The notes under the pieces are model-generated. The model was not told where the DNA came from, did not search any database, and saw only the letters and a list, made by a program, of their open reading frames with translations. Below are positions 219 to 62,534 of a DNA stretch of 64,000 bases, piece by piece. Location: positions 124,001 to 188,000 of the forward strand of contig JBEWZL010000066.1 of the NCBI GenBank assembly GCA_045837725.1. The letters are read 5' to 3'. The stretch's first letter is position 1. Each line of letters begins with the position of its first letter. The translations under genes were made by a program, and so were the position numbers. The stretch comes from Vermamoeba vermiformis. Its lineage: Eukaryota.

Positions 219-2409
219 ATGGAGCACAACAACAGTGAATTAAATAATTTTAATTACTTCGAGGCCATACCGGGCGAAGTCCAAGCCAAAATTTTCAATT
301 ATTTAACGTTGAAAGATCTCGTTGGAAGGTTAGCGAGGTAAGCTACAAAAATATTATTCAGGTATTATTTTTAATTATTCTAATTATTATGGTCGTAGAT
401 CTTCAAAACACGTGGCGAATATTATTCAAAATTCATTATCAATCCACGGCGGCCCACATAACTCACTAAACATCTTGGTTACTGGCCACCATGGCGCAGG
501 TAATAAAAGGCAAAATAATTATAGTAATATAAACATAAATGATTCGTTAATAAGATAAACAACAGATTCGTACGTTACAAAATTTTTTTTTAAATTAACA
601 CTTCATGTTAGGTAGTTCAACGCTATATACTAGACTTCAAGAAGAGCTTGGTATCAATTCGATGGTGAGAAATTTATCGGAATCGAACGAGATCGGATCT
701 ACCTACAAACCCGTTGACGATCGCCGGTGCCAGATCTCCGCAATTAAACTCGAAAATACTCGTGCGAATATATGGCATGGTTCAACTAAGGAAAATAGAG
801 TCAAAAGAATGTACCCTCATTGCGGTGCTGTAAGTAGATTCAGAATCTGGATGTGACCACACGTTTAGACTCTAACAGTTTTCTTATTTTGATCGATAAT
901 ATAGGCTCAATGTATCATTTATGTTGTATCATGCTCTGAAATAGCGACAAGAGGTGATAGTTTGCGTAACGATATTCGGTGCTATCACGCTCTGACCAGC
1001 GATGTTCAATGGATATTTGTCATCAACAAGATGGACCAAGTTCAATATAACGAGCAAGGTATGGCATTAGATGCCGGCTATTGATTATATTATAGTCTTA
1101 TACTTCGATCAGAGTACAACAAGTGTGTCGAAATTATCAAAAAGATAGCGGTGAAAGTGATCGGTGAACAACGCTTGGACAGACTTCATTTCATTCCGAT
1201 GTGCACAAATGATATGAAAATACGCGTAACAAGTGATAATAGCAATCAGAATATGACATGGAATTCGATGAACTTGTGGCGCGTGTTGAATCAAATCGCA
1301 TCCGAGAGTTGTTCTTCGCCTCTCAAAATGTTCAGAAAATTCAAAGCTACTATAATTAGAACGTACGGATGGGTACCAAATGTATCAGGAAAAGACGAGG
1401 GCTTTGTTATCGTTTATGTACTGGGTATGGAATTTCGTAGAAATATTTTTTGGATCCGGCGCTAATTGATTCGATAACGTAGAGGGCTGTATCTCCGTCG
1501 GGGATCATATTCAAATTATTCCAGACCTATTTGGTCCTTATATAGATCAGAGGTACAAATATGCCTCCGTTGAAGTAGTGGGGATCCAGTCGTACAATAC
1601 GAAAAAAACTATCGCCTTGCCCAAGTAAGACCCCTTTCCTCGTAATACATTTTACTAATGATATTATAAGCTCGTATGTCGGTCTTGCGATTAAAAAGCC
1701 GACAGCTCTAGTATACCATACGAAGATCAGGCCAACGCCAAAACCAGTACGCATCCAAACAAAATCGATTTACAGCTTAATTAATACTAATATTTTAATT
1801 TATTAGAAATATTCAATTGTTCATTACCCTGGTATTACACTCTCCAATGAGAAAAAACATGATATTATTTCCACAACCAATGGCGGTGGGATCCGCTTTA
1901 CGAAGCAGTTATCGTGCACGTTGGACATCAAACTGGACGCTATAAATGGCACGGCATGATCCACGAAGTAATATTCATAATCTTACATCAATTAACTTGC
2001 TTATAACCTTCCCTCTTTTTAGGGCTTTGACGCTGCGATCCACAGCATAGGAATTCGAGGAGGCATTAAAATACTTACAATTAGAAAGATCTACGATAAA
2101 AATGGTAATCCTCTAGACTTGGAAGTAGTCAAGAAGGAAAGAAATATGCTCGCGTTGAAAAGAGGCAAGTTTTTTATTTTTCATGAAAATTTAAGCCGAT
2201 CCAAAATTAACAAAATTAAATCAGGCGAAAAGGCGGATGTAACATTATACTCTATGGTTCCTTTGAACGTTACCATACGCGATAGCCCTCATTCTATTAA
2301 TGATGTTAACGGTCGCTTCGTCATCCAAACTCAAAACAACCACGTTGTTGCCGTAGGAGCAATTGTCAAAATACAAAACCCTTTGTTCGCTGATCAATCA
2401 AATAACTAA
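219..2409 (+). CDS. F-box protein fused to a divergent eEF1A/eRF3/HBS1-like translational GTPase fold (probable pseudo-GTPase); multi-exon, possible frameshift near 1850-1905
   Basis: Exon 1 encodes an F-box (FEAIPGEVQAKIFNYLTLKDL). Spliced exons then give NSLNILVTGHHGAGSST (cf. eEF1A INIVVIGHVDSGKST), VINKMD (G4), GFVIVYVLEGCISVGDHIQIIP and ALPNSYVGLAIK (domain II-like), and KSGEKADVTL...NGRFVIQTQNNHVVAVGAIV (domain III, cf. KSGDAAIV...LGRFAVRDMRQTVAVGVI). Confidence 0.8.
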
Positions 2410-2858
2410 AAGGTAAACGCCATAGTTTACTTTAAGGATTTGTTATCAACTCGGTACGTTGTCGGAAAAACAGCGCTGGCGAATTGTGAAATGCCGAGAA
2501 ATTTCGAGAGGTAAAAATATTTTTTTCTTTTGCGTTTTCGCGCTCTCTTTTTATATTTTTTTTTCTGTTTTTTTCGTGGCCCTCCGTTTAACTCTCTTAA
2601 AAAAATTACCCCTACAAGCCAAGCATCATTGCTAATGCCTTTTATTTGCTTTGGCATATAGTTTTGATTTCTTATTCGCTAAAAGTCAGGTAACTCACAA
2701 AAAGACGAATTGGTGAGTCAGCCACGTGATCGCCGGCCAATCATTTGCGGACCTGTCAATCTGACAACGCTGTCACGTGGCGAATAGAGATAAATAGCGG
2801 TTGAGTTTCCGGTTGATTTATTGTAACCCACAAACCAAACAAAAGAGTCACATCCACA

Positions 2859-3642
2859 ATGCGCGCTCTCGTTTTCGTTATTCTTGCTGCTATTGCAGTG
2901 TCCGCCTACGCTGGCAAATGCGCCTACTTGGGCCAACAAGACTCCAAGGCTGTGGAGTAAGTCAAATTCCGTTTTTTCTTTCAACCGCATGCATCCAAGT
3001 CTTTTCTTGTTTTGTAACATTTTTTTCTTTAGCTCTCACACCACCTTGTGCCCACAATACGCCAGTGACAGCTGCTGCCCTGCCCAGTTCGTTGATTCTT
3101 CTTGCACTTCGTACGACGGCTGCAGACATTATCCTGGTAAGTGCTTAATCGACGTTTTTGTTTGACAGCGTTGCACCAATTCGCCTGGCGAATTGAAGCC
3201 AAAAAAAAACAAACCCCAAAATATCTTCGACTTTACACCTTTTACTGAAATACTATTTATAGACACTTGCGATTTCTTGCAAGGATTGGTTACCTGCGGT
3301 CAACGTTGCAAGCCCGATTTCTATACTAATTATGTGGATTCTACTACTGGCAAAACCCGCTTGTGCGAGCCCTTCTATAAGTCTTTGGAAGAAGCTTGCT
3401 TGCAAGTCAAAGTCTGCGACAGATACGGTAACCGCTCGATCGACTGCCGTCAAAGCTCAAACAGCGGCAGCTGCGAGCTCTACTACACTGACGCCGATAA
3501 TTTCTGGCAAAGCTTTGGTGGTGGTGCTTTTGTCTCTTCCACTGAAACCGACAAGTGTTTCTCCGCCGGATTCGCGGTTTTGCCTTCGTTCATTTTGGTC
3601 GCTGTTGCCTTGATCGCTGCTCTCGTCATACTAAGACTATGA
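2859..3642 (+). CDS. Secreted, probably GPI- or C-terminally anchored cysteine-rich protein, folate-receptor/NPC1-N-like fold
   Basis: Signal peptide MRALVFVILAAIAVSAYAG; LCPQYASDSCC, TCGQRCKP, RLCEPFYKSLEEAC Cys pattern; C-terminal hydrophobic tail; two GT-AG introns (~2958-3032, ~3137-3262). Confidence 0.65.
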
Positions 3643-3873: not shown

Positions 3874-5505
3874 CTAATCTTCATCTTGCACAACGAACGC
3901 AGATCCCGAACATCGAAGTCGCATGAGGATCTGCTCAGCAATATGTTTGAAGCTTGAAATACTCGTGCAGGTGATATGTTTGAATATTCTAAGCCATATC
4001 TCTATCGGAAATACGTTGGTAAAGTCGGATCTTGCGATCTGGATCAATGCTGTAATAGTGTTTATAATAACATCTGCTCGGGACTGCCTGTTTCTGACGA
4101 GTAAATTTTCTAGCTGGAGTCTTGTTTCTTTTGCAACAGACTCGTCCCATGTTACTGGCAAATAAAGTAACGAAGTGTTTTGTTCTAGGGCTTTAATAAA
4201 TGCAGCAGATCCGGCGGCATTAAGACGAGCTTCAATTTCAATACATCTTAAGCATTTGTTTGATGATATTGCGCTGGCTATATATTGAATGCTTTCTTCA
4301 TGTTCACAATTCAAATGTACGTAGTTCAACGTTTTGTTGATTTTGAGGGCTTCGGCGATATATTTGCAGCCTTCTAATCCGATCTTATTCTGATTCAAAT
4401 TTAAGTGTGAGAGCACTTTATTCCTCTTAAGTCCTGCGCTAATAAATTTGCAACCTTCAGCGGTGATGTTGGCTTGTTTCAGATCCAATTCTGTCAACGA
4501 TCGATTGTGCTCTAATAACGCTCCAATAGACGGTGAAATATCCTGTGTTAAATCATTCTCGCTAAATTGTATTCGAGTTACTGATTTATTGCGCTGCAAT
4601 CCGTTCAAAATTATTGAGATCCGCTCAGATCCAAATGCGTTGTAATTAATATTAATGTTGCTGATAGAACTATTAAATGTCAATGCGTCCGCAAATAATG
4701 TGCATTCTTCTATGGAAATTAATGGTTGCAAGGGTCTGTCCCAGTATTTTTTAAGCCGAATAGTCAGACGTGTCACGGATGTCGTTTCTTTCAATGCTTC
4801 AAAAACCGGAATTAAATCGTCGGGTACTACGTTATTAATTCTCTTTGTAATTTCAACATTAGCGATAAGATTTGCTTTGATAAATAGCGCTAATGACTTC
4901 ATTCTTTCCGTAGAAACTCGAAATTTTGGAAAGATGACCTTTGAAATGCACTTCTGCTCTTTAATAGCTTCAATTAATGCCCTCGCTTGTTCTTGAGTAT
5001 ATGATATTTTCGGTACTGATAATTCTTTCAACGAAGTATTATTTCGGAGCCCGTTGGTGAAACTGAAAAAACTATCGTTGTTGCAGATGTCGTCGTGCAA
5101 TTCTTTTAAATTTAGATCCTTCAGGTTACAATTTGGTAATAAATCTCCTATTAATTGAAGAATATTGCTGATTATTTTTGAATCATCGCATTTCATAAAC
5201 TGAAGCGATCGAACAGATGTGTTGATTTTCAATGCTCTAACCGTGTGTTCTAGCAAATCAATATCGCAATGTAAATTCAGCCAATGTAATGTTCTACCAT
5301 TGGCTAAAAGTTGTTCAAACTCTTCTAAATCCGCTTTACACAGCCGGAGTTTCCAGATGTTTCTTCTTCGATCTTGGACTGCCCTCACAGATGGCAAGGA
5401 ATCTTCCTTACAAAGGAAAACCAATACCCTTCCCTTTTGTAGGATGGCGTCCAAAGATTGTTGGGGTGGGGGTATTTTACTTGGAGAAGGATCTTGGGCT
5501 TCCAT
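3874..5505 (-). CDS. Intronless RNI-like (NLRC3-type) leucine-rich repeat protein with C-terminal F-box-like motif
   Basis: 543-aa uninterrupted ORF with ~28-aa repeats such as NRSLTELDLKQANITAEGCKFISAGLKRNKVLSHLNLNQNKIGLEGCKYIAEALKIN; C-terminal VFPIEIWLRIFKHI. Confidence 0.85.
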   Translation of the reverse strand: MEAQDPSPSKIPPPQQSLDAILQKGRVLVFLCKEDSLPSVRAVQDRRRNIWKLRLCKADLEEFEQLLANGRTLHWLNLHCDIDLLEHTVRALKINTSVRSLQFMKCDDSKIISNILQLIGDLLPNCNLKDLNLKELHDDICNNDSFFSFTNGLRNNTSLKELSVPKISYTQEQARALIEAIKEQKCISKVIFPKFRVSTERMKSLALFIKANLIANVEITKRINNVVPDDLIPVFEALKETTSVTRLTIRLKKYWDRPLQPLISIEECTLFADALTFNSSISNININYNAFGSERISIILNGLQRNKSVTRIQFSENDLTQDISPSIGALLEHNRSLTELDLKQANITAEGCKFISAGLKRNKVLSHLNLNQNKIGLEGCKYIAEALKINKTLNYVHLNCEHEESIQYIASAISSNKCLRCIEIEARLNAAGSAAFIKALEQNTSLLYLPVTWDESVAKETRLQLENLLVRNRQSRADVIINTITALIQIARSDFTNVFPIEIWLRIFKHITCTSISSFKHIAEQILMRLRCSGSAFVVQDED

Positions 5506-6423: not shown

Positions 6424-7774
6424 TTATTTCTTAAGGACGTTGATTGGGATTTTGAAGTATGACACGCCGTTCGTGTCAGGATCTGGAAGACGACCAGCGT
6501 TCACATTAGCCTAATAATATTATATAAGTATACTAACCGGCATCTATAATCATAACTTACTTGAATTGAAGGTAAAATCAAGTTTGGCGCGGATAATTTC
6601 TCATCACGAGTGGTTCTCAGGCTAACAAACGTTTCTTCGCTAGTGCCGAGCTTGACGTGAATATTTTCAGCTTTTTCTTTGCCAACTAATATATTCGCAT
6701 TAGTTATAGTGACTATAAATACATCGACGCGCAACTAAATTGGATTCATGAATTGGATCACGTACCGGTTGTTTCGCATTGAGCTTCGCGGCCAGAAGGA
6801 GGATAATCATGGCCTAATATTCATGTAAATACTATGTGATATGTAACAAAATAAATAAGACGTACCAACGAACAGTCTGGTATCGTCGGGCAAGCTGAAG
6901 ATCTTTTGAGTAATGGATTTGTACAAAGTCACGGCAGATCCACCAGGGAAATCGCAACGAGCGGTACCAAAATCAGGCTACATAATAAGCATATATCAGA
7001 CACGTTGAAAAAGGCTTCATTAATTGAATTTCAAGGGTTCATGAAAAGATCCTTACCATGAAAATCGTATCGCCAGTGAATACGCAATCGCCAATGACGT
7101 AACATAAGCAACTAGGTGTCTTTAATCATATATTAATAACCATTAGAATATTAGAGGCCCCGTAATAATATATTAATATCTATTTATATATTAGAGGCGG
7201 AAAGTACTTACGTGGCCAGGAGTATGCAAGATCCTGCCTTTAATAGTTCCCACTGAAAATTCATCGCCGTCTTTGAACAAATGATCAAATTGCGAGCCAT
7301 CAGTGCGCAAATTAGCCATATTAAAGATGGTCTTGAAGTTTGATTGGACGACAGTAATATCAGATCCAATTGCAATTTTACCACCCATCTTCTCGCGAAT
7401 ATAAGGCGCGGCTATAGTAATATATTATTATATGGTGATTTTTGTATTTTAAAATAGCCAGAGATTAGCAATTTCAGCTTGTTTAATGAAAGGTCACAAT
7501 TGATTTCAAAAATCAATTTTAAAAATTCAAAATAATTACCTGAGATGTGGTCTGCATGCGCGTGCGTCTCCAATATCCATTCTACACTAAGACCTCGTTC
7601 TTGGACGTACTTGATGATCGAATCCGCAAACTCCGTCGAAGTTGTGGCGGAATTGGCTTTGTAAATCATAACTGAGTCGATGATCGCGCACTTCTTGCTG
7701 GCCTCATCTTCGACGACAAAGGACCACGTGTTGGTACTCGTTTCAAAGAAAGACTTGACTACAGGCTTGCTCAT
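6424..7774 (-). CDS. Persulfide (sulfur) dioxygenase, metallo-beta-lactamase fold, ETHE1/Blh/PDO family, bacterial type II-like
   Basis: ILETHAHADHIS, HTPGHTP, VFTGDTIFMPDFGTARCDFPGGSA, GHDYPP, C-terminal GRLPDPDTNGVSYFKIPIN; about seven exons; no obvious N-terminal transit peptide. Confidence 0.92.
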
Positions 7775-8042
7775 CTGTTCTGTTGTATCAGAATTTTTCC
7801 TGTTTAAAAAAAATTGAAGGATTGACGCTTATAAGTACTATTGCTATCGGAGTAGGAGTTAATGGCGTCTAGAAGCGTCCAAAGATAATATTATCAAACT
7901 CCGGCGTTCTATAAAAGGAAAGTCACGTGGAGCAATCGTCAGGAGTTTTGTGATTGCGCGGTAATACACAACTCCGACATAAATAGCCGCAACAAATATG
8001 TTTTGTTATTAATTCAATCACTTACAAACGAACACAACAAAA
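7775..8042. promoter_or_regulatory. Putative bidirectional promoter between the persulfide dioxygenase and YeeE/YedE genes
   Basis: 268 bp between divergent ATGs; TATAAAA 7910-7916, TCACGTG 7923-7929, palindrome GATAATATTATC 7884-7895, GGAGTT/AACTCC four times. Confidence 0.55.
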
Positions 8043-9525
8043 ATGCAATGCGAAATTAAGCCTCACGTGCCGCATCAGCACTCCGTTGCCGAAACTATTA
8101 CCAAGTCGCTTATTTCGGCGGCAATAGGCACTGTATTTGGCTTTGCGCTTAATCGAGGGTTGGTGTATCACCCCGTCGTTATTCGCGAGCAATTTATCGG
8201 CCAGAACTTTACTATGATGAAAATGTTTTTGTCGGCCGTAACCAGCAGTTTAATAGTGAATTCAATTATGTCTATCATCCCTCATTTCAAGAACAATTTT
8301 GAAAAATCAAGAGAAAAATACTACAAAGGTAAGCAATTATTTTGAAAATATAATCGCCAATAAAGCTAATTTAAATTCTATTCAGGTCCTTTACCAGCAA
8401 AACAAATTTTGATAGGCGCAGGGCTGCTTGGCGTTGGCATGGCAGTCTCCGGAGCATGCCCCGGAACGGTAAGTGTCTCGGAGGTTTCCGAATGAAAAGA
8501 TTTCTAGATGCGTTCATGAATAGGATCTTACGTGTATTATACGATAGGTGGCCGCACAGATGGGCGCCGGAGTTCCTGAATCAATATTCACCATGATTGG
8601 CTCGTTGCTCGGAGGAACAATTTTCATGTTGTCTGAAAGTGCTTTGGACAGTCCTAAGAAAGCAGATCCAACGTAAGTAATGCATTTAAGCACGATAACA
8701 AACACGTTTGTATCAATTTGAGCGCAATTCCTTCCAAAGCAAAGTCACGAAGGCAAATCCACCAACATTATTGAGTTTGCTACGTTTACTTACTCTTGTT
8801 TGGTTTTAGTGCTACATTAGAAAAGAGATGGAAACTACCTTATGCCGCCGTAGCATTGCCTCTATCGGCCGCTCTTGGAGCATTTGTTTACGTGCTGGAG
8901 AAGATCCGACCATGGACAACCGAAAATCAAGTTGCTTTGACCGCTGTGGGAATGGCAAGTCATTGATATAGCTCTTAGTATATATGATAGCCACAATACT
9001 AACATAATCGCTCTTTTACAGGCTGCTGGTACTCCTTTCAGTTTTTCAAATCTGATCTGGCCTCCTTATGTCGCTGGTGCTCTTATTGGCTTGCTTCAAT
9101 TGTTCAACGTGCAGCTCTTAACGCATAACATCGGTTGCTCGAGCTCATACATGACTGTCTTGGCTCAAGGCGCTTACAACTTGTTGCCGGAGAGCCTCCA
9201 CAAGCACATCCACCTTGCCTTGCAAAAGAGATCTGGTCTTAGTAACTTGATGCAACCGACATTTGTGGCTGGTGCAATTTTGGGCAGCTACTTCGCTGGC
9301 AGCGCCGTCCACATCACTTCCTCGCTCTTTTCAAGCCCGCTCCGATCTTTCCTTGGCGGATCTCTTTTGCTTTTTGGTGCTCGCGTAGCTAACGGTTGCA
9401 CGTCAGGTCATGGTATTTCTGGCTTTTCAAACTTGAGCTGGAGATCTTTCCTAGCCGTTGGAGGAATGTTTGCTGGAGCTTTTGTTGCTGGCCTTAGTCT
9501 GAAGGCCGCAGGATTATTCCATTAA
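8043..9525 (+). CDS. YeeE/YedE family (Sulf_transp) thiosulfate/sulfur transporter, two halves in one chain
   Basis: FGFALNRG, GVGMAVSGACPGT, WPPYVAGALIG, NIGCSSSY and FGARVANGCTSGHGISG signature motifs; multiple hydrophobic segments; about five exons. Confidence 0.9.
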
Positions 9526-29248: not shown

Positions 29249-29486
29249 TCCGATCTGGATCTTAAAATAATGAATATGTCTTTGGAAGTCTGGACTTCTG
29301 GTTCTCCGAGCAAATTAATATTGAAATCAATACGATCGGCACGTAAATAGATTTGGCGCTGTGTTGCTTCATGATCTGCGAAAATAACATTTGATTGATT
29401 GCTCTATCAACAAGCAAACACTTCTTCGTCGTCATATAATTGTACGTTAATGTGACTTAACGAGGAGGGCAATCAACAATTACGCA

Positions 29487-32170: not shown

Positions 32171-32314
32171 GACTGGACGCTCTTCCAGGGAAATGGGACC
32201 AAAAGTAGATCCAGGAAAAATTCGAGCTTTTTCGCAATGTGACAGACCGTGAACACACAATTTGATTCAAATGTCAAGCAGTAAATTGATAATTTCTGCC
32301 TGTGGATACAACCA

Positions 32315-39100: not shown

Positions 39101-40079
39101 TCTGTTCGCTTTTGTAAGAGCACGAAACTTGGCGTATAGTCAGAATTACAGTAATAATCATTATGATAGTGCTTTAGTTTGTTGGAAGGTCTTGGCGTGA
39201 TGAAAGCGAGCACGATTAAAAATGCCATCGATGTCTATCTTTTGATTTACGACTTCGCTGACCCGAGGTTTTTTGACGTACGTGATTGGTCAACCGATTA
39301 ATTAATAGGCATTTAACTAATAGAATTCATTTCAGATCCACGAGTTGATTTTCTATCTTATCACGACTTGGCCGAGAAACGCTTATGAAGGCATTCGCCA
39401 GTCAAATTTGGCAGACTGGCTCCTTTTCCGTATCAAAAAAGCGAAGTCACAGGTAAGCTTTGTTCATTTAATATAAGGCATTGGATTAATAGTTTTGATA
39501 GGAGCAGATGGCGCCGTGCTTGTACGTCTTTGCGACTTGTGCAGTATTTTATGGCATTGACTTTATCTCCGTAAGTTCGGTGAGTTCTTTCTTAGAAAAA
39601 GTGACTAACGTAACTGATATTAGATGGAACTTTGTGTTGATGACCCTAATGAAGACGAGTTCGAGTCCTCCGATCAATACTTGGCGCGAATCATACCGTA
39701 CTGCAGAGCGTTGTACGTGGATGCATCAAAGAGCGATATGGACAGTCGTTGGATGGAAAAATTGATGTACGTGAAGTTTATGCGGAACTTTTTGATCTTG
39801 TACGCCATCTATCTCGTTCATAATCACTCGGGCGAGATTTCCTTGTTGACGAAGGTCGAAGAGTATGACTCAGATGTCCTCAAGGTCGTGATAGCGAGCG
39901 AAAAGTCATTCGATACAGGCGTGCCTGAGTTGAACGAGTACTTTAGAGGACTGGATCTGGACGGTCTTTGCAAGGCTTTGTCATTAAAACGGGTTGTGTA
40001 CTCAGACGAAGAAGACGAACCCGTGGATAATGTTTCGTTCGAACGAGAGGATGATGATATGGAAATAAATGACGAATGA
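36189..40079 (+). pseudogene. F-box array copy 2; full length but with two apparent frameshifts (~36549, ~37751)
   Basis: GVKRSRE...KKLK, MLPEELLMQILVRVPKK, DFWRLSC, VDWQFYYKLR, SDDWKIKASA, DTGVPELN, acidic tail; in-frame TAG at 36559-36561 and TAA shortly after FAGLVGL. Confidence 0.65.
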
Positions 40080-48300: not shown

Positions 48301-49084
48301 GCTAAATTAGTTCTCAGGTTGCCGGAATGATGCACAACTTCATTACTATGTGGCCAAGAAATGCGTACGAAGGCATCAAGGAGTCTATATTGGCTGTGTG
48401 GCTCCGCAAGAGAATCAAAAAAGCCAGCTGCTTGGTAATGCCATCAACATCCGATTGAAATAACTAACGTTTGTTCTTCAGACGGAGTTAACGCCGTTCC
48501 TATTAGTGTTTAGTACTACTGGAGCACTATACGGAATAGATTATGTAATAGTAAGCATCGACTACAACGGTGTAATTCAAATTCTAACGTGATATGATTA
48601 GGACAACCTATGCAAGGACGACCCTGAAGCTGACACGTACGAGGCACCAGAGGATTATCTGGCTCGAATTATTCCGCACTGTAGGGAACTTTATAATGCC
48701 GTACAGAAGGGTGATGCGAATGTAGAGCTATTAGAAGCCAATTTATTAAGAAATTTCATCATTTTGCACGCAATTCATGCAGTCGATGACTATTTTGGCG
48801 ACATTGGCATGATTCCTACGCTCTACGACTTTGACGTCGAAAGATTGAAAGCCGCACTTGCCAACGACAAGCTCGACACAGGAATCCCTGAGTTAAGCAA
48901 ACTCGTGAAAGCGGCAGACTTTGAAAAGATTTGCAAAGTCCTACTGCTGTCGCGACAATTACACGAGAACGATGAAGAGGAAGAAGAATGCATTAGTGGC
49001 GAAGAATCAGAGGAAGATGTTGAAGTTCTAGAAGATAATAATAAGCATAGTGAAAGGAAACCTAAAGAACCCGCCTCTATTTGA
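45309..49084 (+). CDS. F-box array copy 4
   Basis: MFSNAGTKRSRE...KKAK, DLPEEVLMHILVRVPKK, DFWKLSCQRKW, VDWKFYYTLR, SDDWRIKASA, DTGIPELS, acidic tail; no lesion noticed in the exons I checked. Confidence 0.8.
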
Positions 49085-49184: not shown

Positions 49185-52100
49185 ATGAATGCTATAGAAA
49201 TATTTATTCTCCCAGAGGAAGTGTTGCAGCTGATAGTTCTTAAAGTTCCCAAAAAAAGTTTAGGTAATTACATCCGAGCTCGGTAGATTAATTTAGTGTC
49301 TACTCAATTAATTGCCAATAAATATTATCTAATTTATTAATAATTTTAGCTGCATTATCTTTGGCCTCAAAATACTGGCTGCAGATCACGCGATCAGAAG
49401 ATTTTTGGAAGCTGTCATGTCACGAGAAATGGACAACAGTACTTGCTTCGGATAGAAAGGATTTTAGTGGCGATGAATATTTGATTCCTACGCTAAATGG
49501 TTCGTTTTCAGTGAAGTCCGATCGGATTCGCATCTGTTTGACACCTTATTTCGCAGTTGCCGGCGAGAAAGTAATTGATTGGAAATTCTATTATCAGCTA
49601 AGGTACGGTTATGACGCTATAATTGGACAAGGTATTAACCTTAAAGCAGGAAAAATTGGAGCAAACTTCGGACCTGGATCGTTTCAATTAGTAGCAAAGA
49701 CGAGAGCGTGCGGGAATTATGCGACCATATGACTAATACAAGCGAGCTCGACTTTAATATCCACAATTTTCTGGAGTTGATTGGCAGAAATATCCGATCT
49801 CTACCCGAAAACATGACAACGTTGTGTATGGACTTTTTATGCGATCTATGCCTACTGTGGTCCCAAAAGACCGATATTACGGTTGTTAATACCCTCATCA
49901 GTGTAAAATATTGCCTTATTCAACATTATCGAATCGAATCCAATCAATTCGGGTAGGCCTTTTTATTTTTCTCCTTTTTTCAACGATTAATTAATAATAA
50001 TTATATTCTAGGCTATGTAAGAAAGCGTTCAAATTGTGCGAGCTATTTCGAGACAAAACGTCTTCGGTGATAGCCTTGTTCACCACCGCCAAGACTCTGT
50101 TTTATTCGATACCTCAAGTACACGAACGAGAAATGGCGTTGTTTCGAGGGCTAGTCGAGTTTTTTATTAATATGGGAACGTTGGACTTGTACCGACAAAA
50201 ATCAATGGGGACGTCTTTGCAGTTTGTATACCCGTATCCAAATGGTAGTTTGATGAGCGATGGGCCTATTAATAATAGAGGTACGAAATATAGTATGGCT
50301 AAATACGTAGCTTATACTTGTGCAGATATGTTAAATAGCATCACGATGGAGATGGCTAGTCAAGCGTATCATTCCAGTGCTGATTGGCGCATTCAAGCGA
50401 GTGCCATTAATGCAGCGTGGATACCAGACTATACAGACCCGGAATATCTCCGTAAATACTTTGAGTACGTCCTTGAAAGTGTCACTTGAATTGAACTGAC
50501 GATCTATCTACAGCTTGGCGATGCACGCTGCGAGAAAAGATAACGCACAAAATTTTTTTTTTTTCGGGGTTATTGTTTTAAATTTTTTTTGCAAAAAAAT
50601 CAAAATCTTTTTTCGAAAAAATGGTTTGAGATCTTCACGTACACCTTGCCTCAGTTCCAATTGTAAGTCATCGCCAACGAACTGTGATTACTGCAAAAGA
50701 ATTCTAATTAATTTTTAATAGCAAGCAGTTTTATGTGCTGTTGTTGCTTCTCTTGCCTGTGATCGATCCGACGGAAATTTCGGATATTTTGCTCAACGAT
50801 TTCATCACAAATTTATTCACAGAAGCTCATCTACTTTATGAAGATAAGTGGGTTATACGAGAATTCGAGAAGATTGGAGCAGTGTTCAAGGAGAAGGTAC
50901 GCATCTGCGCTTAACTTTTTGCATCCGTCTTCAATGACTTATGTTATTTAGAAACTCGAGCAAATTAAATCAGCGCTCTTCGACTTAAACAGAACGCTTA
51001 ATTTGGAGGCAGAGCGGCTGTTGCTTTGTTACATTAACATTGGTAAGACAGTCAGATTTTACCCGATTAAAATTAATTTCCCGCCAATACTACTGATCAG
51101 GGCTCAATGTCAAGGGACATAATTTCGCAACAGAGTTCAGACAGCTCGTGCAACAGATCATCGATCGATCGTTGCCGTTTGAAGTGTCACTAATCAAGTG
51201 CTACAAGCTATTTGGTGCGACTTGGCTTCAATTTGCAGAATTTGAGGAAAACCGAGAGGCAATCATTGAAACTCTCTTGATGGTTATACCACCCAAGGTA
51301 TACGAGTACGGTCAGTGTGAAATTGAGATTGACTTTGAAGCCGCTGAACTGCCAGACTACCCTGAAACAATAGTCGAGTTGTTAAAAGAGCACACGCATG
51401 CAAGTCTACTGAGCCAGTTGTCAACTTCGCTTCAGTCTTACACCAAAAGTGACATACCCAAGTATATCGTGAAGAAAGAACACTTGAAGCCTGTCAATCC
51501 CAACGGAAATATCAGTGACATTTACCGCAATGACACAATGCTGAGTGAGAAGGTAAGACTACGTGCTGTCAAGAATATAATACCTTAATGAATATTGACG
51601 TTTGTAGACCATTGTGGATTCGTACGAGTCTGCAAGACAGCTATTTTTTATCGTGACGCAGAACGAAGGAAAATATGTTCAGTTCACGCAATACGTACTT
51701 CACGCAATGTTGTCATATGGCCACGAGTTGCGCGATGATGACTTGATTGATTGGTGCATGTCTGTGACGGATCTGATCGAAATGATCAAGCCAAACGTGG
51801 ATCCAATTGATTTGACGAAATATATCGATATCATTCTTAACTTGGTAGCTAGAAAAACTATTGACAGTTCGACGTTTCTCGATTTATACGCGTCTCAAGT
51901 GGTAGCTCTTGCGGAAATGTTTGCGAAGGTAAAAACAAAAGTTCATATATTATCATATTATTACTCATTAGCTTGCAACAGTGCTTCCATACTTTGACTG
52001 CATTGCGCAAACCTGTCAAACCCGAACTGATCGCGACAATGATTTTCATCTACTTGCAATTGTACGACGAGAACGTACCGAGAATACTGGAGGTAAGTAC

Positions 52101-52897
52101 CAACATCTTTAGAACTTAACAATATTAACTCCGAATTCAGCTCTCGGAGTTCATTCGGTGCCTCTGCGTAGGATGGCCTCGAGTTGCATATGATGGGATT
52201 AAACGCTCTATGTTGGCTCCTTGGCTTAACAAACAACTCCAGGAGAATGACCTAATGGCGCCGTATTTGAATGTTTATTCAGTTATTGCTGGACTGTACG
52301 GCATGGACTACGCTATAGTACGCCTCTAATCCTGGTGATAGCATGCGCTAATGTTTTTGCTATCTGTAGGCCACACTATGGAAAAATGATATGGAGCTCG
52401 CTGAACGAACGATCAGTGCTTGTAAGAGACTATACTCAAGAGCTAAAAGCGAGGTAGTCAGGCTTAGTGAGGCGGATCTGATATTTCTACGCAATTTTTT
52501 GGTACTTCAAGCAGCGCACGTTCTGAACCCACGCACGGGAACTATTTCGATCATTCCAAAGACTGGCCCTAGCGCAATTAATTTGTTAAAAGAAGCATTG
52601 CGTCACAACGAGTTCGACACTGGCGTACCAGAACTGAACGAGCACGTTAAAAATCTTGATAGAGCTGAAGTTTGTCAGCTTTTGCTTGTAAATCGAAAAA
52701 ATGAGGATGATTGTGAAGGCGAAAGTCCCAAAAGAGGACCGATTCCCCTCGCGAATAAACAATTGCATCGATTTTCGAGTTTATTATTAATGTGGACAAG
52801 GAAAGCACATGACAATCTTGTAATCTTTCATTATATTATTGTTAGTATTCGTTATTATGGCAGCATCCCTGGGTGGGAACAGAAAGCGCGACCTTGA
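49185..52897 (+). CDS. F-box array copy 5; lacks the N-terminal NLS, has a disturbed homopolymer-rich exon (~50545-50625) and an extended C-terminus overlapping copy 6
   Basis: MNAIEIFILPEEVLQLIVLKVPKK, DFWKLSCHEKW, IDWKFYYQLR, SADWRIQASA, DTGVPELN; first in-frame stop at 52895-52897. Confidence 0.65.
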
Positions 52898-55800
52898 AGA
52901 TCCTGAAGACAAGCCAGTCACGAAAAAAGGAAAATTAATTTACCTGGAAATATACGATCTACCTGAAGAGTTGATAACGGTTATATTGGCGAAAGTGTCC
53001 AAAAAAAATCAAGGTAATTTTAACATTTAATTAAATTCTAGAAATTACCGCAATATTTGCATAAACAAACAATTCACTAAAACAAATAATTAAATTAATT
53101 TTATATTTAGAAACATTATCTTTGGTTTCAAAACAATGGCTGCAGATCACGCGATCGCGAGATTTTTGGAAGCTGTCGTGCTATCATAAATGGCCAACAA
53201 CAGTTGATTCAGACGTTAAGAACTCTGACTACCAAAATATCGCTATTCCAACGTTATTCGGTAAGCAAAATTTAATCTGTGCGATCTGCGAAGAATTCTA
53301 ATTTACTGCAGTTAATGGGCAGACCTTGGTCGATTGGAGATTCTATTACTATTTAAGGTAAGATGTCTTTATTACGCGAAGGATCATCGTTTTAGAGACG
53401 TCAGCAACAAACATTGGGGAGGGTGCGGAACAGGAGGAGAAGCGCTCGATAATGGATCTCATGAATGCAGTGACTTTCATATTACCACTGCCTTTAAGTG
53501 GACAGAATACTCGCACTTAATACTGACGAACAACGTTTCGACTGATTTAAGAGCCTCAGTTTGCATCTTAATGGTCGATTTAGCTTTGGTGTGGTTTACT
53601 CAGGACAAAGCTGAGTGGATTTATACCATGTTGTGTGATTTGGAGAGACTTATCGGAATGAACGCATTCGCAGCAAGTAGCTTTCGGTATTATTTAAAAT
53701 TGGCCTATTCTACTCAAACTAACATTATTTTAGGCTCTTTAGGGGTTTATATGAACTTTGCCTGAAAATTCAAGACAAAGCTCCGGCTCTACTGCTGTAC
53801 TTATTACAACTGACAGTCCGAGTTTTTCACACAATCAAATATTACGATGGACGTGCGAAAAGATTACTAGGCTTATTGACCGAGTTTATGATTCATTTGG
53901 GGTCGTTGAATCTCGGTCAGTCTGAGCGTCAAGATCTGATTAAATTTCAGTATCCGCTTGAAAAAGAAATAGTTTTGTTGGATGCTCGCCTGGCTAATAC
54001 TGGTAAAATACTGATCGCAGCACTTCATTTCTAATAATTCATATTGTGCTAGAGTTCTTGGACGTCGTCATCGACATTGCAACTCGTGTGTTTCATTGTA
54101 GCAGTGATTGGAAGACGAAAGCAAGTGCAGTTTGTGTTGCGTGGGTGCCTGATTGCACGGATCCAGAGTACTTCAATCGCTATTGCAAGTAAGCGAAACT
54201 CAATCCAAAAATATTTGCAGAGCACTAACGTTTATTTAACGAGCCAGCTTAGCAATGAATGCGCTTTCAAGCAGTGACCCAAATATTGGCTTTGCAGGCC
54301 TCGTTGGTTTAAACAAAATGGTGATTCAGATCTCAGTTAATTGGGCCGCACAGCCACGCTTTACTGATGATCAAGTGACAATGATGCTTGCAAAGTTCAT
54401 CTCAGCATTTAATCGATTTCCTGACGTCATGTAAGATCTTAATAGGCAGTTGTACTGTTATCTATGCTGACCTAATGTCTAGGATCGACATCTTCACTGC
54501 GTTGCTGGCACTGCTAGAATACGTTAAGCCGGAGCTTTTACCCGATACATTACTCCGCGATTACTCCGTAAATATGCTGCGAGTACTTGCGAACGCTGAC
54601 CAAGTCCAACAAGAATTAAGACCAATACTCTATGGAATCAAAATGGTTGGCGCAACGTTTAAAGATCGCCTTAGCAAGGTATAATTAATTGGTCGAGCAA
54701 TAGAATCAACGAGAATTAATTATCAAGTAGGAAATGGGCTTTGCAAAAGTTGCTTTCTACGAAGCTGCGATGACCGGTGCACTAGAAGTCGAGAGATTAT
54801 TAGCAAGCTACATTCAATTTGGTGAGTAGTGATGATGGCTGCTTTTTCGAGACTTTAGTTAACTCGTTCACTTATTAGGCGTATTTGTTCAAGGCCGAGA
54901 ATTTACTTTCGAGTTCAGACAGCTGGTAAAACAAATCGCTGATGACACCTTGCCATTCAAAGTCTCTGTACTTAAATGCTTCGAGCACTTTGGTGCAATT
55001 TGGATTTCGATCACAGAGTCAGAAAATGAACACGAAGAGATCGTTCAGGCACTACTTAACGCTATTCCTAAAGAAGTATGCGAGTACGGGCAAAGTCCGT
55101 TCTACCCATGGTCCATAGCCGCACTCGAGAGTGGTCAAGAGGAATTTCCCGAAACAAAGGCAGAATTATACGCTAATCATTCGTACGATCTCAGTCAGCT
55201 CAATTTGTCGTTTTCATTCTACAAACGTGATGCTCGCTTTGCGCACTTTGTTCCAAAAGAAGATTTGAAGCAAGTAACTCCGAGCATACGATATCGCTCT
55301 AACTTTGACGCACAATTACCAAAACTGGTAAGCAGAGCAAATATTTAATGTTTAAATTAAATTGATTGTATTATTTTTTGCAGCAAACTAAAGAAGCCTT
55401 TTATCCGGCAATTCAACTCGCTCAGATTGTTGCAAGCAACAAAGGCAAATATCTGAAGCACGCACAAACTGCACTCAATGCGTTGCTTGCAATGGAGTTC
55501 GGTTTGCCTGACGGTGGTTTTGTACCATGGAGGGAATCATTAATGGCGCTTCTTCAATTGGTCCAACCAAATATGGACCCGAAAGATCTGCTACATTACG
55601 TTGGAATCATTCTCGATCTGATTTTACAATGGAAAATCAAAGCTGAACCTAATTTAATCGTGGACCTGTTTTCATCGGTAAGCTGTTTACAACGATCGAG
55701 CCTTCGTTAATATATTGCGCAGTGCGTTGAAGCCTTAATGAAACTACCAAGACTCACCGTCGACGCAATCACTTTAACGAAGTTGATCGATGTGTTTCTC

Positions 55801-56566
55801 GTGCAATCCCCCCACACTCTAAAACCTCCAAAAGTAAGCTAGAACTGCAGATTTATGGAAGAACTGATGCTCACTAATGATAGTTCACCGAATTTATGCA
55901 AGGCATATGTCTCGAATGGCCAAGAGCCGCGCGTCAAGCTTTGGAGTGTTCCAACTTGCCTTTAACACTTAGAGCACATATCCACGACACTGACCCATTG
56001 GTATGAAACGTTTTCTTGCTGCTTTATCCTTATTTGTACTTCACAGGAGAGTATGGTGCCATATTTGACCCTTTGCGCCAGTTTAAGTGCACTTTATGGT
56101 TACGATAACGTGATGGTACGTTGCATCACGTATTATATACAAACTCTCAGTAATTCTGTTATAGGTTGTTCTTTTAAGGTCAATCATGGACCGGGATAAT
56201 TTTGAAGATCGAATTGTGCGTCTCTGTCGGGAATTGTATATAGCAGCGACAAATGGAAAGATTACTTTGAGTGAAACGGATCTGCTGTTTCTACGCAATT
56301 TTTTGGTCCTGGAAGCCGTGAGTTGGCGCACAGGGCGCATTGCAATCATTCCTAAGTCAGGACCTAGATCTGTTGAAAGGCTACGAGAAGCATTAGCGGC
56401 AACGGAAGAGGACAAGCTTGACACGGGCGTCCCAGAACTGAACAAACACATTACTGGTCTGGATCTTGCTGGAGTTTGTAAGCTTCTGTTCTTAAACCAA
56501 AAAGATGAGAATGATAGCAACGATGAATCTGATCTCGAAAGTGGAAACGATGATAGCGAGATCTGA
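52857..56566 (+). CDS. F-box array copy 6
   Basis: MAASLGGNRKRD...KKGK, DLPEELITVILAKV, DFWKLSCYHKW, VDWRFYYYLR, SSDWKTKASA, DTGVPELN, acidic tail. Confidence 0.8.
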
Positions 56567-56662
56567 AGGAGCTAATTTCGCAGAATAAACATTTTTTGCA
56601 AATACCTTGGATTGAAAGCAACATGATAACTCGCTATTTTTCTTTCGAAAGAAACAATTACA

Positions 56663-59600
56663 ATGAATACGGTCCCGCGAGAGAAAAGAAGCCGCGATCC
56701 GGAAGATCAAGAAGAACGGGCCACCAAAAAAGCCAAATTAAATTATGCAGAAATTCACGACCTTCCTGAAGAGTTAGTGATGCAAATACTCGCGAAAGTG
56801 CCTAAAAAAAATCTTGGTAATTAAATAAATAATTTCATACCAATTCCATTTATTTATATCTCAGGAATTCAACGAGTTAGCTGCTATTCAATACGTCACC
56901 GATTCTAATTTTAATTTTTAAAGCCACGTTATCTTTGGTTTCAAAACAATGGCTGCAGATCGCTCGATCGCGAGATTTTTGGAAGCTGTCATGCAATCAG
57001 AAATGGCCAATGGCCGAGTCAGAATCAATTAAGTTTAATGACTTCGGAGTCACCATTCCGACGATAACAGGTACCTCTACAGCAAGATCTTTGCCAGTGG
57101 ATAGAACTCCGAACTAATATTTCTTTATCAGTGAAGGGAAATGCAGTGGTCGATTGGAAATTCTTGTATTATCTAAGGTATGCATATTTATTACCAGTAC
57201 AGATCGATAACAGCCTCTATTGTAGAACGAAACTTCGGAAAATGAACAAGCAATTCTCAGCTCTTGCCAAACAAAATAACGACAGCGGAGTGTTGGAAAG
57301 TCTGGCCGAACAATCAGCTAAATGCATCGATATTTTCTTCGTTTCGTTGCTGCCACATTTCGCGCGGTACTTGTTACATGGCAAAATCTCAGACGAACTG
57401 AGACTTACATGTTGCATCTTGTTATGTGACTTAGGACTAATTTTCTATATCAAAAACCTCCCTGATATGGCATTAATCATGCTTAGCACGTTGAAAAGTT
57501 TCGTTAAAAATTTCCCTCCGAGGACCTTTCAGTCCACAGCGCAACCACAAACCTCCTTCAGACTTTGTCGAAATCTGCTGCAATTCTGCCAAGAGATTCA
57601 AGACAAAGACCCTACACTACTGCTCGACAATGCCCTGCCCACAATAGTACAAATATTTCAGCTGCTGTTTGTCGACGAACGCACGAAAAAGCTTCTTGGT
57701 CTACTGACCAAATTCATGATTCATTTGGGAACACTCAAACTTGGCCAAGTGGAGCGTCAAGACGAACTCAAATTTCAATTTCCACTTGGGAAGAATATCG
57801 CTCTGCTCAACGATCTTCTTGCTAAAAACGAAGGTGAGTTTGTCGAATTGTAGAAGGAAATGATTTAAACAATTTGACACTTTTTGCAAGATCTGTCAAC
57901 AATTATCATCGACACGGCTACTCAGGTGTACAATAACAGCGGTGATAATTGGAAGATGAAAGCGAGCGCCATATGCGTCGCGTGGATACCCGAAATTACA
58001 AAAAAACGATGGATAAATAAGTATTACGAGTAGGCGTTGTTCAATAAGACCGCATTATTCATATTAACTTTTGTGCAATCAGATTGGCAATGAAGGCATT
58101 TGCAGACTGTGACTCCAATGTGTCATTTGCAGGCCTTGTTGGGCTGAATAACCTCGTGCAACAGAAAGACATTCGATTGCGTCTGACTGATAAGCAAAGA
58201 AGCGACATCTTCTACGCCCATACGGATGCCTTCACTCGATCTCCTTCGCTCGTGTAAGACCAATCTAACATTATCGTCTAACGCCTGATACACACCACTA
58301 ACACAACGTTTCAAGAATTGAGTTGTATCGCTCAATGTTGACCCTGCTGAAAGACAATAAGATAATTCTTTTGTCTGGCAAGACCAGACTCAATGAGTTC
58401 ACATCCAAAATGATGGCAGTATTTGCCCTGCTTAAAGACCTTCCAGAGGACGAGAGACACATTGCTTACGACTTCAATTTGTTTGGCTCAGTCTTCAAGA
58501 GCCGTTTTAGTCATGTAAGTTTGTCGCTTTCAAGGCAACTAATTTCAATGTGCAGACATTAGAGCAAGTGAAAGCAGCGTTCTTCGAGTCAGTTCAGGCT
58601 GGATTACTCGTGCCCGAGAAGTCGTTGGCAAGCTACGTGCAGTTTGGTACGAGTGACAACTGACAAGATTGGTCTTACTGAGACTATTGATAGGTGTTAG
58701 TGTCAAAGGACCTGCATTTGCGTCGGAGTTCAGACAGCTTGCCAAACAGATCGTTGATGGCACCTTGCCGTTTAAAGTCTCCTTGCTCGAATGCTACGCA
58801 CAATTCGGAGCTATTTGGGTTCAGTTCTCGGAATCAGAAGACGAGCGAGACCAAATTGTTAACGCACTTTTGACAGCAATTCCTGAAGAAGTATACGAGT
58901 ACGGCCAAAGATTATTCTTTCCCCACCACATTCAGGAACAAACAGAACTGCCTCGATTAAAAGAAGATTTGTTTAACGAACACACATTTGACTTGCATCA
59001 GCTGCAAATTACATATTCAGCGCCACAAAAGAAGAAAAACATTGTCCCTCGGTCTGTCGCTAAAACTGGTTTAGTCAAACAAAAAGGTTACCGCCACAAT
59101 CATGACTTGAATACTCTTCCAGACGTAAGACCTAGCTCGTTCTATATGATATCATTTACTAACAAGACTTGTTATTTAGAATGCAATGATGTCATTCAAC
59201 TTTGCACGGCAGCTCAGTTTGATTGTCACGCAGCAAGACAAAAAATACCTCAAACACGCGCAAAATGTGCTCCACGCACTGTTAGCAATGGAATTTGGTG
59301 TACCAGACCACAAGTTAATCGAGTGGTTACCTTCTGTTGCGAGCCTTATGGAGATAATTTCTGTGAATATGGAGCCAAAGGACTTGCTTAATTATACTGA
59401 CACCGTTCTGCGAGTGTTGGAAAACCTTATTAAACAGAAGGGCAATCAAACTCAAGACGAACTTGCACTTCAGTTATTCTATTCGGTAAGACATTTATAA
59501 CATAGACGAGTAATTTTGCGTGTCTAATCAATGGACAGTGTTTTGACAATTTAATCAACTTGGCACCGTATGTCCAGGCAAATCATCTAGCAACAATTAT

Positions 59601-60308
59601 TGGCACCTATGTGAAACTCCTTGAAAAGGAGGTTCAAATCACATTAAATGTAAGTACATTTTATACCTTTACTATGATTTAAGTAATTTATTCCGTCAGC
59701 TCGCCGAATTCATCCGCTTAGTCAGCCTCACCTGGCCCAGACTCACACCAGGTGCCGTACAATTCACGTCCTTACCGCTAGATGACTACTTTGACTTGGA
59801 CCCTCCACTTTCTGCGCCTTCTTTAAATGTGTACGCAAGTTTGAGTGCACTGTATGGCCTCAATTGCATGATGGTAAGTTCATGCGTTCAATAACAGCGC
59901 TAACATTCATTCTGGTAGCGAGTGCTCGAAATCGACGAGGATTACCAAGCAGATGTTATCCACTATTGCAAACAAATATATGTGGCAGCGACAAGCGGGT
60001 TGACGGCTTTGAGTGAAACAGATCTCACATTCCTCCGCATCCTTCTGGTTCAGAATGCTGCTCACCGTATTAACCCCCGCACGGGAAAAATAGGAATAAT
60101 TCCGAAAACGGGCCCTCGTGGCATTACAGCGCTGAAAAAAGCGATTGAGGATGATACATTCGATACGGGTGTGGAAGAACTGAACGAGCACGTCAAGAGT
60201 TTAGATATAGATGGCATTTGTAAATTTATGTTCGTCAACCGAAAAGAAGAGGACAGCGAGGAAGAGGAGGAAGACGATGAAGAAGGAAGCAATATGACAG
60301 ACGAGTAG
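56663..60308 (+). CDS. F-box array copy 7
   Basis: MNTVPREKRSRD...KKAK, DLPEELVMQILAKVPKK, DFWKLSCNQKW, VDWKFLYYLR, DNWKMKASA, DTGVEELN, poly-Glu tail. Confidence 0.8.
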
Positions 60309-60332
60309 AGTGACAATAAAGACCTCGGATTA

Positions 60333-62534
60333 CTATTTATTCGAAGGCACAACATTTCGTAATGTACAATGAGAGCTCTCAAAACAGTCGCAGAAGAAAT
60401 CTCCGTACTGCAAGACACCGAGCTGATGCCCCTTGTGACAGACATTAGCGCACGTGATGCACACTCCTGTGTTGCCATTCAAAGTGCACGTGAAACATTG
60501 CACCCAAAACTGCGGTGAGTAGTGGCGCTGTGTGCGGTGATATGTACAATTGTGTTTGATAAGCATTTCTTTCACGCCTGCAGTGGTTGGCATTTGATAC
60601 CGTGTCGGATCCTGGAGCACGAACGGATGCGCGCCAAAGTTGGGTCTGAACTACTGCCTTGCCGCTTGATGAGAATAAGAATCCGATGATAGGGAAGAAA
60701 GGCTTCATTGGAATATTGCGGAATTGAAATCCTAGAAGTGCTTGAGAGTTAGGACTACGCATTGAAATGTCAATAATGTCACGTACCTAAGCTCATGCCG
60801 TTCACTGTGAAAAATAATTCTTTGCTGCGCATGTCCCAGCCACATCCGACGGTAGATCCCCGACCGAATGGAGTGGAGCACATTATTCCGCTCTGAAAGT
60901 CTTCGTAGTAGACACGACCATCATCGCTGTGAAAGCCGAACGAGCCGTTCTTCCAGCCAGGCAAGCCTTCCAGGGGCTTTTCTGCTGGAGCCAGGCCGAT
61001 TGAGACTACACCAGAGGCATCGAGCTCAACGATTTGCAGCTCAAAATAATAGACGTGCGGGTATGTGATGGGAATGGCAATGTTGCCCGCTAAGGTCGTG
61101 AACTCTTTGATAGGTTGTTGGCGCATATTGAATCCGAATGTAATCGGCTTTTTGGCAGTGATCGTGTCATTCACCATTGAGATTTCCAGCTTTGAATTTT
61201 GTGGTGTCTTGAAGTAGGTGGGCAGCATGACGGGCTGTTTGTCCATCGGATGATACGGCACTGATGGCTTCAAAATCAAACTGTTCAAAGACACGTGTCA
61301 ACAACGACCTTTTGTCTCGTGTCACAGTCACCGCGATACTTACAATTGTTCCAAGCATTGTTTGGTGAGAATAAGTTCTTTTTCTAGTGCGTGGATCTCA
61401 CTGTCTTTTGAACTCGTCTCGAGTGCACGCTTCGTTGTCAATTCATCGATCAACTTGACGTGCTCGTCTGTGTCTTCAATCAAGTGTTTGTTATATTCAG
61501 CCCGTGAGCCTGTAAATGTACATCCATATTTGCTGTACGGACATGTGAGCTGCATGGCGTGACACTCGTCTTTTAAGTGCTTGGCAAGGTACTCGCGTTC
61601 AACGTCGTTGCCACAATTGTTTGGACAATGAACTGTAGTCTTTTTGCACGAGTCTTTTACATGCGCCTGGTACGTGCATTAGCCACAAATAATGTTAAAC
61701 TGTTGCAATCCTAAGGTACCTCTAATTCATTCAACTTGACCATCTCACCGCACTTTTCACATGCCTGTAATCGCATTGGGCACTCGTCTTTTTGATGCGC
61801 AGTCATGTCTTTACGCAACAGAGACACTCCACATCCAAGTCTATGCGGTATGATATTAATATTCATCAGGCAAGGTTGTGTGTTACGCCAGAATGACGTG
61901 GATGCATTAAAAAATTAACGTACGTGCAGGTAACTTCTACGTAGCCACAAGACTTCTCAAGATGTTCTTTTAATACTCCTCGCGTTAATCTTCGCGCATC
62001 ACAACCTTTGGCTGCATTGGGACATTCTATTGGTAAAATGTCGACTAATCTGCGTGCACAGCAATTAGATTCTGTATTTTATAATTTGAAGGCCAAATAT
62101 CTATTTTAAAATAATTATAATAATTTATAACGAGTGTATGGGTCGTTTCGGGCGTGACGTAAGCGAAATCTGGAAATTTACGGCCTTTTTTTTTTAATTT
62201 GAAACTAAATCGATAATTGAAATTACCTTTGAATGGGCACACTAGCTGATAAGTCATCTACTGATATCTCTTTTCGACACGATGGACAGGTCTTTGTTTT
62301 ATTTATCCATTCTTCTGCACAAGCTATAGAATAGAAAATTGCGTTACTATTACATCGCTATTTTCTATTAGGATATGGCTCGGTCAAAATCAATTTTCGT
62401 CTGAATGAGGGGCAAATCTGATCACATCGGGAATAGCTACCTTTACAAAAGCAGTGGTGACAGCAACTCGTTTCGTGAGCGTTAGTAAACTTCTCAGAAC
62501 ATATAGGACAGTCGAGTAGATCGTCTGTCGACAT
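60333..62534 (-). CDS. E3 ligase-like protein: RING + TRAF-type zinc fingers + coiled coil + SPRY + UBR-box-like zinc finger
   Basis: CPICSEKF...CCHHCFCKACAEEW...CPSCR (RING); CPNAAKGC...HLEKSC, GCG...HQKDEC, CPNNCG...HLKDEC, CPYSKYGC...H (TRAF zf); YYFELQI...SIGL...PGWKNGSFGFHSDDG...TVGCG (SPRY); CTY...QCFTC...VCITCANVCHKGH...FFCDC (UBR box as in FBXO11). Confidence 0.88.

Follow-up and report, generated by a model that had tools for sequence, protein, structure and literature searches.

Does a stretch of protist DNA that is rich in genes for ubiquitin-ligase components form a defence locus, or is it an ordinary piece of its genome? The question is raised by 64,000 nucleotides from Vermamoeba vermiformis (contig JBEWZL010000066.1, positions 124,001 to 188,000; C66:124001-188000 in our numbering), a stretch that is called the window below. 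A preliminary description listed eleven ubiquitin-ligase-type genes and two relics in it, and suggested that F-box proteins carrying imitations of host proteins serve there as bait for pathogens. According to gene models and Pfam, all of these genes and relics are present (Table 1). Seven of the eleven genes make up one tandem array, H1-H7. One gene outside the array belongs to a family in which an F-box is fused to a degenerate eEF1A-like GTPase, and this family is real, conserved and apparently undescribed. The assembly is that of an intron-rich eukaryote and comprises 43.3 Mb in 309 contigs; its gene content, with many actin loci and TRAF-like ligases, suggests a free-living amoeba-like protist. 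Gene models were made with our own splice-aware parser and curated by hand; such a parser can mask a frameshift as a false intron, which happened in the eEF1A-like gene. Homology and profile searches for the window genes used single exons as queries.

Searching the genome with Pfam F-box models returned 852 and 746 first-look candidates; 150 were scored in each search and all 150 matched, none of them inside the window. An F-box hidden Markov model (HMM) was built from 30 of these genomic loci, none from the window, and run on 30 random 20 kb blocks (600 kb) drawn from 80 contigs (22 Mb). It gave 16 matches at 14 bits or more, with none in the reversed control, and 22 at 10 bits, with three in the control. 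The resulting estimate is 1.5-2.0 F-box loci per 64 kb, or 1,012-1,373 genome-wide. The F-box copies of the window are weak and split by introns, scoring 10.5-20.1 bits on the same HMM (no reversed-control match in the window at 10 bits), and two N-terminal F-boxes are found outside the H array. With 2.0 F-box-type loci and 0.3 loci of the leucine-rich repeat (LRR) family expected per 64 kb, the four independent loci of the window are to be compared with 2.3 (P=0.21). Clustering beyond random expectation is seen only when the ten genes are counted singly, array copies included (P=2e-4). Tandem placement is usual for F-box genes in this genome: for 40 of the 150 top matches another match lies within 8 kb, where 8.1 would be expected. 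Every ligase family of the window also has members scattered on other contigs; zf-TRAF, for instance, gives 33 matches over 13 contigs. The preliminary description had itself named an F-box density equal to the genome background among the findings that would refute it, and this is what is observed outside the array, so its window-scale claim fails. The neighbourhood reduces to one tandem array, and the window is an unexceptional piece of the genome.

The reading of these 64 kb as a neighbourhood dedicated to defence, with a translation factor and a karyopherin as its two types of bait, is accordingly unsupported, and we regard it as highly improbable. The inventory itself and the copy-by-copy count speak in its favour, but the genes between the ligase loci are of housekeeping type and no karyopherin match was found in the array, as described below. 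A further point in its favour was the suggestion that lesions concentrate in the ligase genes. They do lean that way: the coding sequence of the ligase genes (25.7 kb) has six clean frame breaks (one each in the eEF1A-like gene, H1, H3 and the RING gene, and two in H2), whereas none was detected in the 15.8 kb of twelve other genes. The bias is weak, however (p=0.057, or p=0.19 if one control lesion was missed), and some odd introns in the twelve control-gene models could hide breaks. Further lesions are the H3 deletion, a homopolymer stretch in H5 and the two relics.

Some of the window lesions are probably assembly errors. The H5 break lies in a homopolymer-rich stretch (50550-50620) that is probably low-quality assembly, and contigs from the DNA run X1 skip it. 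On contig C210 a conserved gene for a secreted protein is interrupted by about 1 kb of GC-rich, low-complexity junk (L030:1590-2680), probably an unpolished long-read patch. Together these indicate that the assembly has unpolished patches. In the eEF1A-like gene a frame break between 1832 and 1905, as judged against intact relatives, is either a lesion or an assembly error. The H1 break near 34679 is absent from P0017, a relative from another sample, and a contig of run X4 over this exon has one gap. H2 is broken near 36549 and 37759, and H3 probably near 41573. The deletion of about 450 codons in H3 is shared with P0021 from another sample and is therefore real. Decay inside a tandem array is in any case expected with or without a role in defence.

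The F-box/eEF1A-like gene is found at five loci, namely the window and paralogues on contigs C18, C97, C3 and C13. The four paralogues outside the window each have an N-terminal F-box and share the exon plan of the window gene, and all four are intact. A profile search gave two intron-free full-length relatives, P0003 (540 amino acids) and P0005 (544 amino acids, one intron retained); their contigs are about as long as the reading frame, and they are thus probably transcripts from related organisms. P0003 clears the Pfam F-box-like cut-off with 25.5 bits, and P0005 matches GTP_EFTU (E 3e-6) and the eEF1A C-terminal domain (E 4e-4). When a family profile of these two was compared with the PDB, archaeal EF1A, HBS1, eRF3 and eEF1A were found at E-values from 3e-10 to 2e-3, and hhalign aligned the family to host eEF1A with 91.5% probability. 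The homology spans eEF1A domains I-III. A PDB search with only the last eEF1A-like exon of the window gene gave nothing relevant, and an AlphaFold2 model of the family, with eEF1A left out of the alignment, gave no usable fold (predicted local distance difference test, pLDDT, 32).

The fusions share with eEF1A, HBS1 and eRF3 the domain order I-II-III, the core motifs of domain III and the G4 motif NKMD, which is kept in all seven fusion proteins. They differ from these GTPases by the N-terminal F-box and by what has been lost. The G1 pattern GxxxxGK[ST] is absent in seven of seven, the P-loop lysine included, and the position of the G3 motif DxxG reads HGST or HAST in the six aligned fusions. 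The description of an F-box fused to a degenerate translation factor is thus confirmed, and the motif losses suggest that the eEF1A-like domain would be unable to run a GTP cycle. The fusions share 26-27% identity with host eEF1A and 57-68% with their orthologues in other samples; the family forms a long branch, and its parent subfamily is not resolved in the tree. The ratio of non-synonymous to synonymous substitution rates (dN/dS) is 0.12-0.19 for the seven of ten pairs where it could be estimated, and the only close pair displays 19.5 non-synonymous against 31.5 synonymous changes. Judged by these ratios the family is under purifying selection, and two of its sub-lineages are retained and spliced in other samples.

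No relatives beyond close kin were found: a scan of viral sequences was empty and a phage collection gave one EF-Tu-like match. A metagenome scan gave partial matches only (24-44% identity), which were taken as ordinary translational GTPases without inspection. On these searches the fusion appears to be restricted to close kin of the host organism. No description of F-box/eEF1A fusions was found in the literature searched, which was mainly open-access, and the supplementary tables of one paper may list such partners (PMC9485057).

The genome holds 16 matches to the eEF1A C-terminal domain. At least seven additional, diverged eEF1A paralogues lack an F-box (L007-L014, L039, L041); their G motifs are partly eroded and they form a gradient from canonical to dead. 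One more degenerate eEF1A-like gene, on contig C191 (L040:3098-5552), has two ubiquitin-like domains directly upstream, and an in-frame GT-AG splice is possible, making this pair a putative fusion.

The combination of an F-box with a housekeeping fold is found elsewhere in the genome as well. From 48 F-box loci outside the window, 82 of 140 candidate neighbouring frames were run against Pfam. The partners recognised were actin (1), Ras (2), SNF2 (4), SPRY (2), TPR (3), kinase (2), LRR (3), Kelch (1) and beta-helix (1), and the remaining frames had no match. The F-box and a full-length degenerate actin fold lie in one open frame at about 327260-328680(+) on contig C77 (L134:62-1478), while most of the other partner links rest on parser models. 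In the actin-like protein the phosphate-loop region looks altered. A sizeable gene family combines a nuclear localisation signal (NLS)-like motif, an F-box and an SNF2 helicase (L065, L111, L112, L131, and by eye L084 and L117), and parser models join F-boxes to small GTPases that are Ras/Rab-like and, as judged by eye, Miro-like (L066, L099, L132). With F-boxes fused to degenerate actin, small GTPases and SNF2 elsewhere, the pattern is one of genome-wide domain shuffling. The fusion of F-boxes to host folds is therefore genuinely characteristic of this genome, but has no special link to the window, as the preliminary description had supposed.

We consider it probable that the fusions are substrate adaptors of Skp1-cullin-F-box (SCF) ligases made by domain shuffling, with the dead eEF1A fold as a fixed binding scaffold. 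They would belong to a genome-wide expansion of SCF adaptors in which, in this lineage, many pre-existing folds have gained an F-box by shuffling. As expected from its family the F-box would dock on Skp1-cullin, while the three-domain eEF1A fold, its GTP cycle lost, would serve as the scaffold that hands a ligand to ubiquitination and the proteasome. The ligands are most likely lineage-specific partners on a repurposed surface, probably components or regulators of the translation machinery. Since the fold is old, under purifying selection and unlike host eEF1A at the effector site, such partners are likelier ligands than effectors fooled by mimicry.

The effector site also bears on a genome-wide version of the bait idea, in which F-boxes, and perhaps ubiquitin-like domains, are joined to dead eEF1A, actin and small GTPases. 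Proteins of giant viruses or of intracellular bacteria that have evolved to seize these host machines would be caught on the dead copies and passed to the proteasome; the window would then hold one such gene. Both eEF1A and Rab1 are targets of effectors in amoeba-infecting bacteria, and the glucosyltransferases Lgt1-3 recognise a decapeptide of eEF1A (PMC8961657). This decapeptide, in the Ser53 loop, was used as a search pattern. It is present in host eEF1A and absent in seven of seven fusions, where the loop is deleted, so the fusion would be a poor bait for the known eEF1A-modifying bacterial effectors. The five loci with a dead eEF1A-family fold, the actin fusion, the small-GTPase models and the ubiquitin-like pair on C191 speak for such trapping. 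The low identity to host eEF1A, the purifying selection, the low copy number and the orthologues kept in other samples speak against it, and SNF2 helicases (whose motifs look intact), kinases, TPR and Kelch proteins are not obvious baits. We hold this explanation to be unlikely, although it is the live alternative to the adaptor reading. No description of decoy F-boxes in protists was found in the same, mainly open-access, literature. Plant NLR receptors (NLR standing for nucleotide-binding and leucine-rich repeat) with integrated decoys have an output module to which a copied host domain, one that pathogens target, is fused. Compared with these, the output here would be ubiquitination and not NLR signalling, and the resemblance to the host target is low.

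Several points weigh against the adaptor reading, in which a host partner is a putative ligand. Pathogens classically target eEF1A, actin and small GTPases, which are partners in these fusions, and the large, tandem, lineage-restricted F-box repertoires of nematodes have been proposed to recognise foreign proteins (PMC8665587). Positive selection was looked for and was not seen in whole-gene dN/dS (0.12-0.25), a measure that with mostly saturated dS can mask positive selection at a few sites. Finally, the 80 contigs from which the random blocks were drawn had an earlier family match, which may inflate the background estimate. If the ligands are invader proteins, the fusions would be a protist counterpart of the integrated decoys of plants with destruction as the output; if they are host proteins, a pseudo-GTPase would have been repurposed as a ubiquitin-ligase receptor. 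The F-box/eEF1A-like genes, concrete and few in copies, are an entry to the question of what use some thousand F-box proteins are to a protist.

A third explanation is mostly non-adaptive shuffling and duplication, where duplicated housekeeping genes receive F-box exons and the products survive for some time with no dedicated function. Spare duplicates are indeed many: besides the eEF1A C-terminal matches there are 123 actin-family matches, among which six actin loci tie for the top score and many others are divergent. The relics, the deletion and the frame breaks of the H array fit as well, and drift has been proposed for the F-box expansions of amoeba symbionts, where F-box birth and death is described (PMC4209131). 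Set against this are dN/dS values far below 1 over saturated synonymous distances, the two fusion sub-lineages kept and spliced in other samples, and the splicing of H1 and H2 introns in run X4. An origin and persistence of this kind is quite improbable.

Plants have expanded, unstable F-box families, and nematodes have an expanded Skp1 family. The present genome resembles plants and Caenorhabditis in its hundreds to more than a thousand F-box genes, tandem duplication, birth-and-death and an overall dN/dS below 1, but here the F-box sits on housekeeping folds that are whole, namely eEF1A, actin, small GTPases and SNF2. Unlike in nematodes, Skp1 gives only one clear and one weak match (L137, L138), despite about a thousand F-box genes. 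The Caenorhabditis families are expanded by tandem duplication and birth-and-death with dN/dS below 1 (PMC8665587), and for Dictyostelium one motif search gave 52 confident F-box candidates (PMC9485057). Arabidopsis ARP8 combines an F-box with an actin-related domain according to a title cited in PMC8066076. It thus shares the principle of an F-box on a housekeeping fold and is a precedent for the F-box/actin-like gene on C77; the title names no immune role, and no eEF1A-type equivalent was found in the literature searches.

The H array spans 32315-60308(+), and H3 and H4 are separated by one unrelated multi-pass membrane-protein gene. One H copy is found outside the array, on contig C210, adjoining a copy of the same neighbouring gene, and H2 is the array copy closest to it; the C210 locus (L030) also holds a further H-type first-exon stub after this copy, at 7265. 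Identity among six array copies and the outside copy is 32-61%. The proteins are laid out as a basic bipartite NLS-like motif (recognised by eye, absent in H5), an intron-split F-box, about 800 helical-looking residues and an acidic tail. For the eight of 21 pairs where it could be estimated (H5 left out), dN/dS is 0.17-0.25. Between H1 and run X1, 40 of 390 rows give 12.5 non-synonymous changes beside 11.5 synonymous ones, a pN/pS of about 0.29. Run X4, presumably RNA, has four introns of H1 and one of H2 spliced. The RNA runs X21 and X23 are too diverged for the H genes (70 and 90 reads, mainly on the neighbouring membrane-protein gene). Old tandem duplication under birth-and-death evolution is the best explanation of the array.

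The suggestion that the H proteins imitate a karyopherin found no support. Pfam gave no IBN_N match in the H copies and one sub-threshold CAS_CSE1 match (E 0.002) in one of the seven. The genome's own karyopherins give nine IBN_N matches. Three H exon profiles found no karyopherin in the PDB at E<=5; these were single exons, and the comparison with eEF1A, which was readily found by the same kind of test using a full-length profile, is unequal. A profile search gave eight exons from close kin and two unrelated repeat proteins, placing H relatives only in close kin. When the long exon of H7 was used to look for homologues, none was found, and the Atlas clusters matched by the H C-terminus were all unnamed or unrelated. 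The Atlas neighbours of H are HEAT-type proteins (Tra1, DNA-PKcs, HEATR5A, PSME4), recognised below the reliable range, and no internal repeats were seen by self-hhalign. The predicted structure of the C-terminal exon (pLDDT 64) had no Foldseek match at E<=0.001, with a best Z of 3.9. The region may at most be a helical solenoid, and the H proteins are probably nuclear adaptors that bind through it, the nuclear location being suggested by the NLS-like motif before the F-box.

Table 1. Ubiquitin-ligase-type genes and relics of the window (window coordinates).
Feature	Position	Strand	Description	Basis
F-box/eEF1A-like	219-2409	+	F-box and degenerate eEF1A-family GTPase (domains I-III), 9 introns	Gene model; relatives' profile matches aEF1A/HBS1/eRF3/eEF1A in PDB
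LRR gene	3874-5505	-	LRR protein, intronless, 543 amino acids, half F-box-like motif at C-terminus	Pfam LRR_6
Orphan F-box	15246-17453	+	Intact, 514 amino acids, no second domain recognised	Pfam F-box-like, E 2.4e-4, under cut-off
Relic H0	29476-30300	+	Decayed 5' portion of H-family gene	Gene-model comparison
Relic stub	32051-32172	+	First exon of H-family gene, frameshifted	Gene-model comparison
H1	32315-36087	+	NLS-like motif, F-box, long helical region, 991 amino acids, one frame break	
H2	36189-40079	+	1021 amino acids, two frame breaks	
H3	40254-42280	+	Internal deletion of ~450 codons, probable frame break	
H4	45309-49084	+	Intact, 1011 amino acids	
H5	49185-52897	+	Without N-terminal basic segment; frame break; reads through into H6 start	
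H6	52857-56566	+	Intact, 983 amino acids	
H7	56663-60308	+	Intact, 988 amino acids	
RING gene	60333-62534	-	RING-like, zf-TRAF repeats, SPRY, zf-UBR, one frame break	Pfam zf-TRAF, SPRY, zf-UBR; RING by eye

The LRR gene belongs to a family with 105 genome matches (80 of 237 candidates scored) and three members in the 600 kb background. Its C-terminal F-box-like motif, which scores 6.9 bits on our F-box HMM, is conserved in three of three sampled relatives, with its P.E.W..I pattern kept in four of four aligned sequences. The genes of this family, with about 100 matches outside the window, are mostly single-frame within an intron-rich genome; retrocopying and transfer from bacteria are candidate origins. 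In poxviruses and Orientia, repeat proteins are described whose C-terminal F-box (PRANC) is truncated (PMC9414399). The window protein has the same order of a repeat domain and a truncated F-box-like motif; it differs in being host-encoded, in having LRRs and not ankyrin repeats, and in giving no match to the PRANC Pfam domain. For the RING gene, whose frame break lies near 60651 between SPRY and UBR, the TRAF-like ligase TrafE of Dictyostelium is an amoeba precedent in cell-autonomous immunity (PMC10181826). RING and zinc fingers are common to both, but the window gene ends in SPRY and zf-UBR and has no TRAF domain.

The genes between the ligase loci are ordinary ones. They encode a metallo-beta-lactamase, a sulphur transporter, a hydrolase, Ras, a RhoGEF and a Zn2Cys6 factor, and further an EF-hand mitochondrial carrier, a Cid1-type polymerase, secreted proteins, a multi-pass membrane protein and EIPR1. 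The metallo-beta-lactamase is ETHE1-like and lies head to head with the YeeE-type sulphur transporter at 6424-9525, a pair of bacterial style for the handling of sulphur. Probable GC-AG introns are found at 2165 in the eEF1A-like gene, at 33485 in H1 and at about 8955 in the sulphur transporter.

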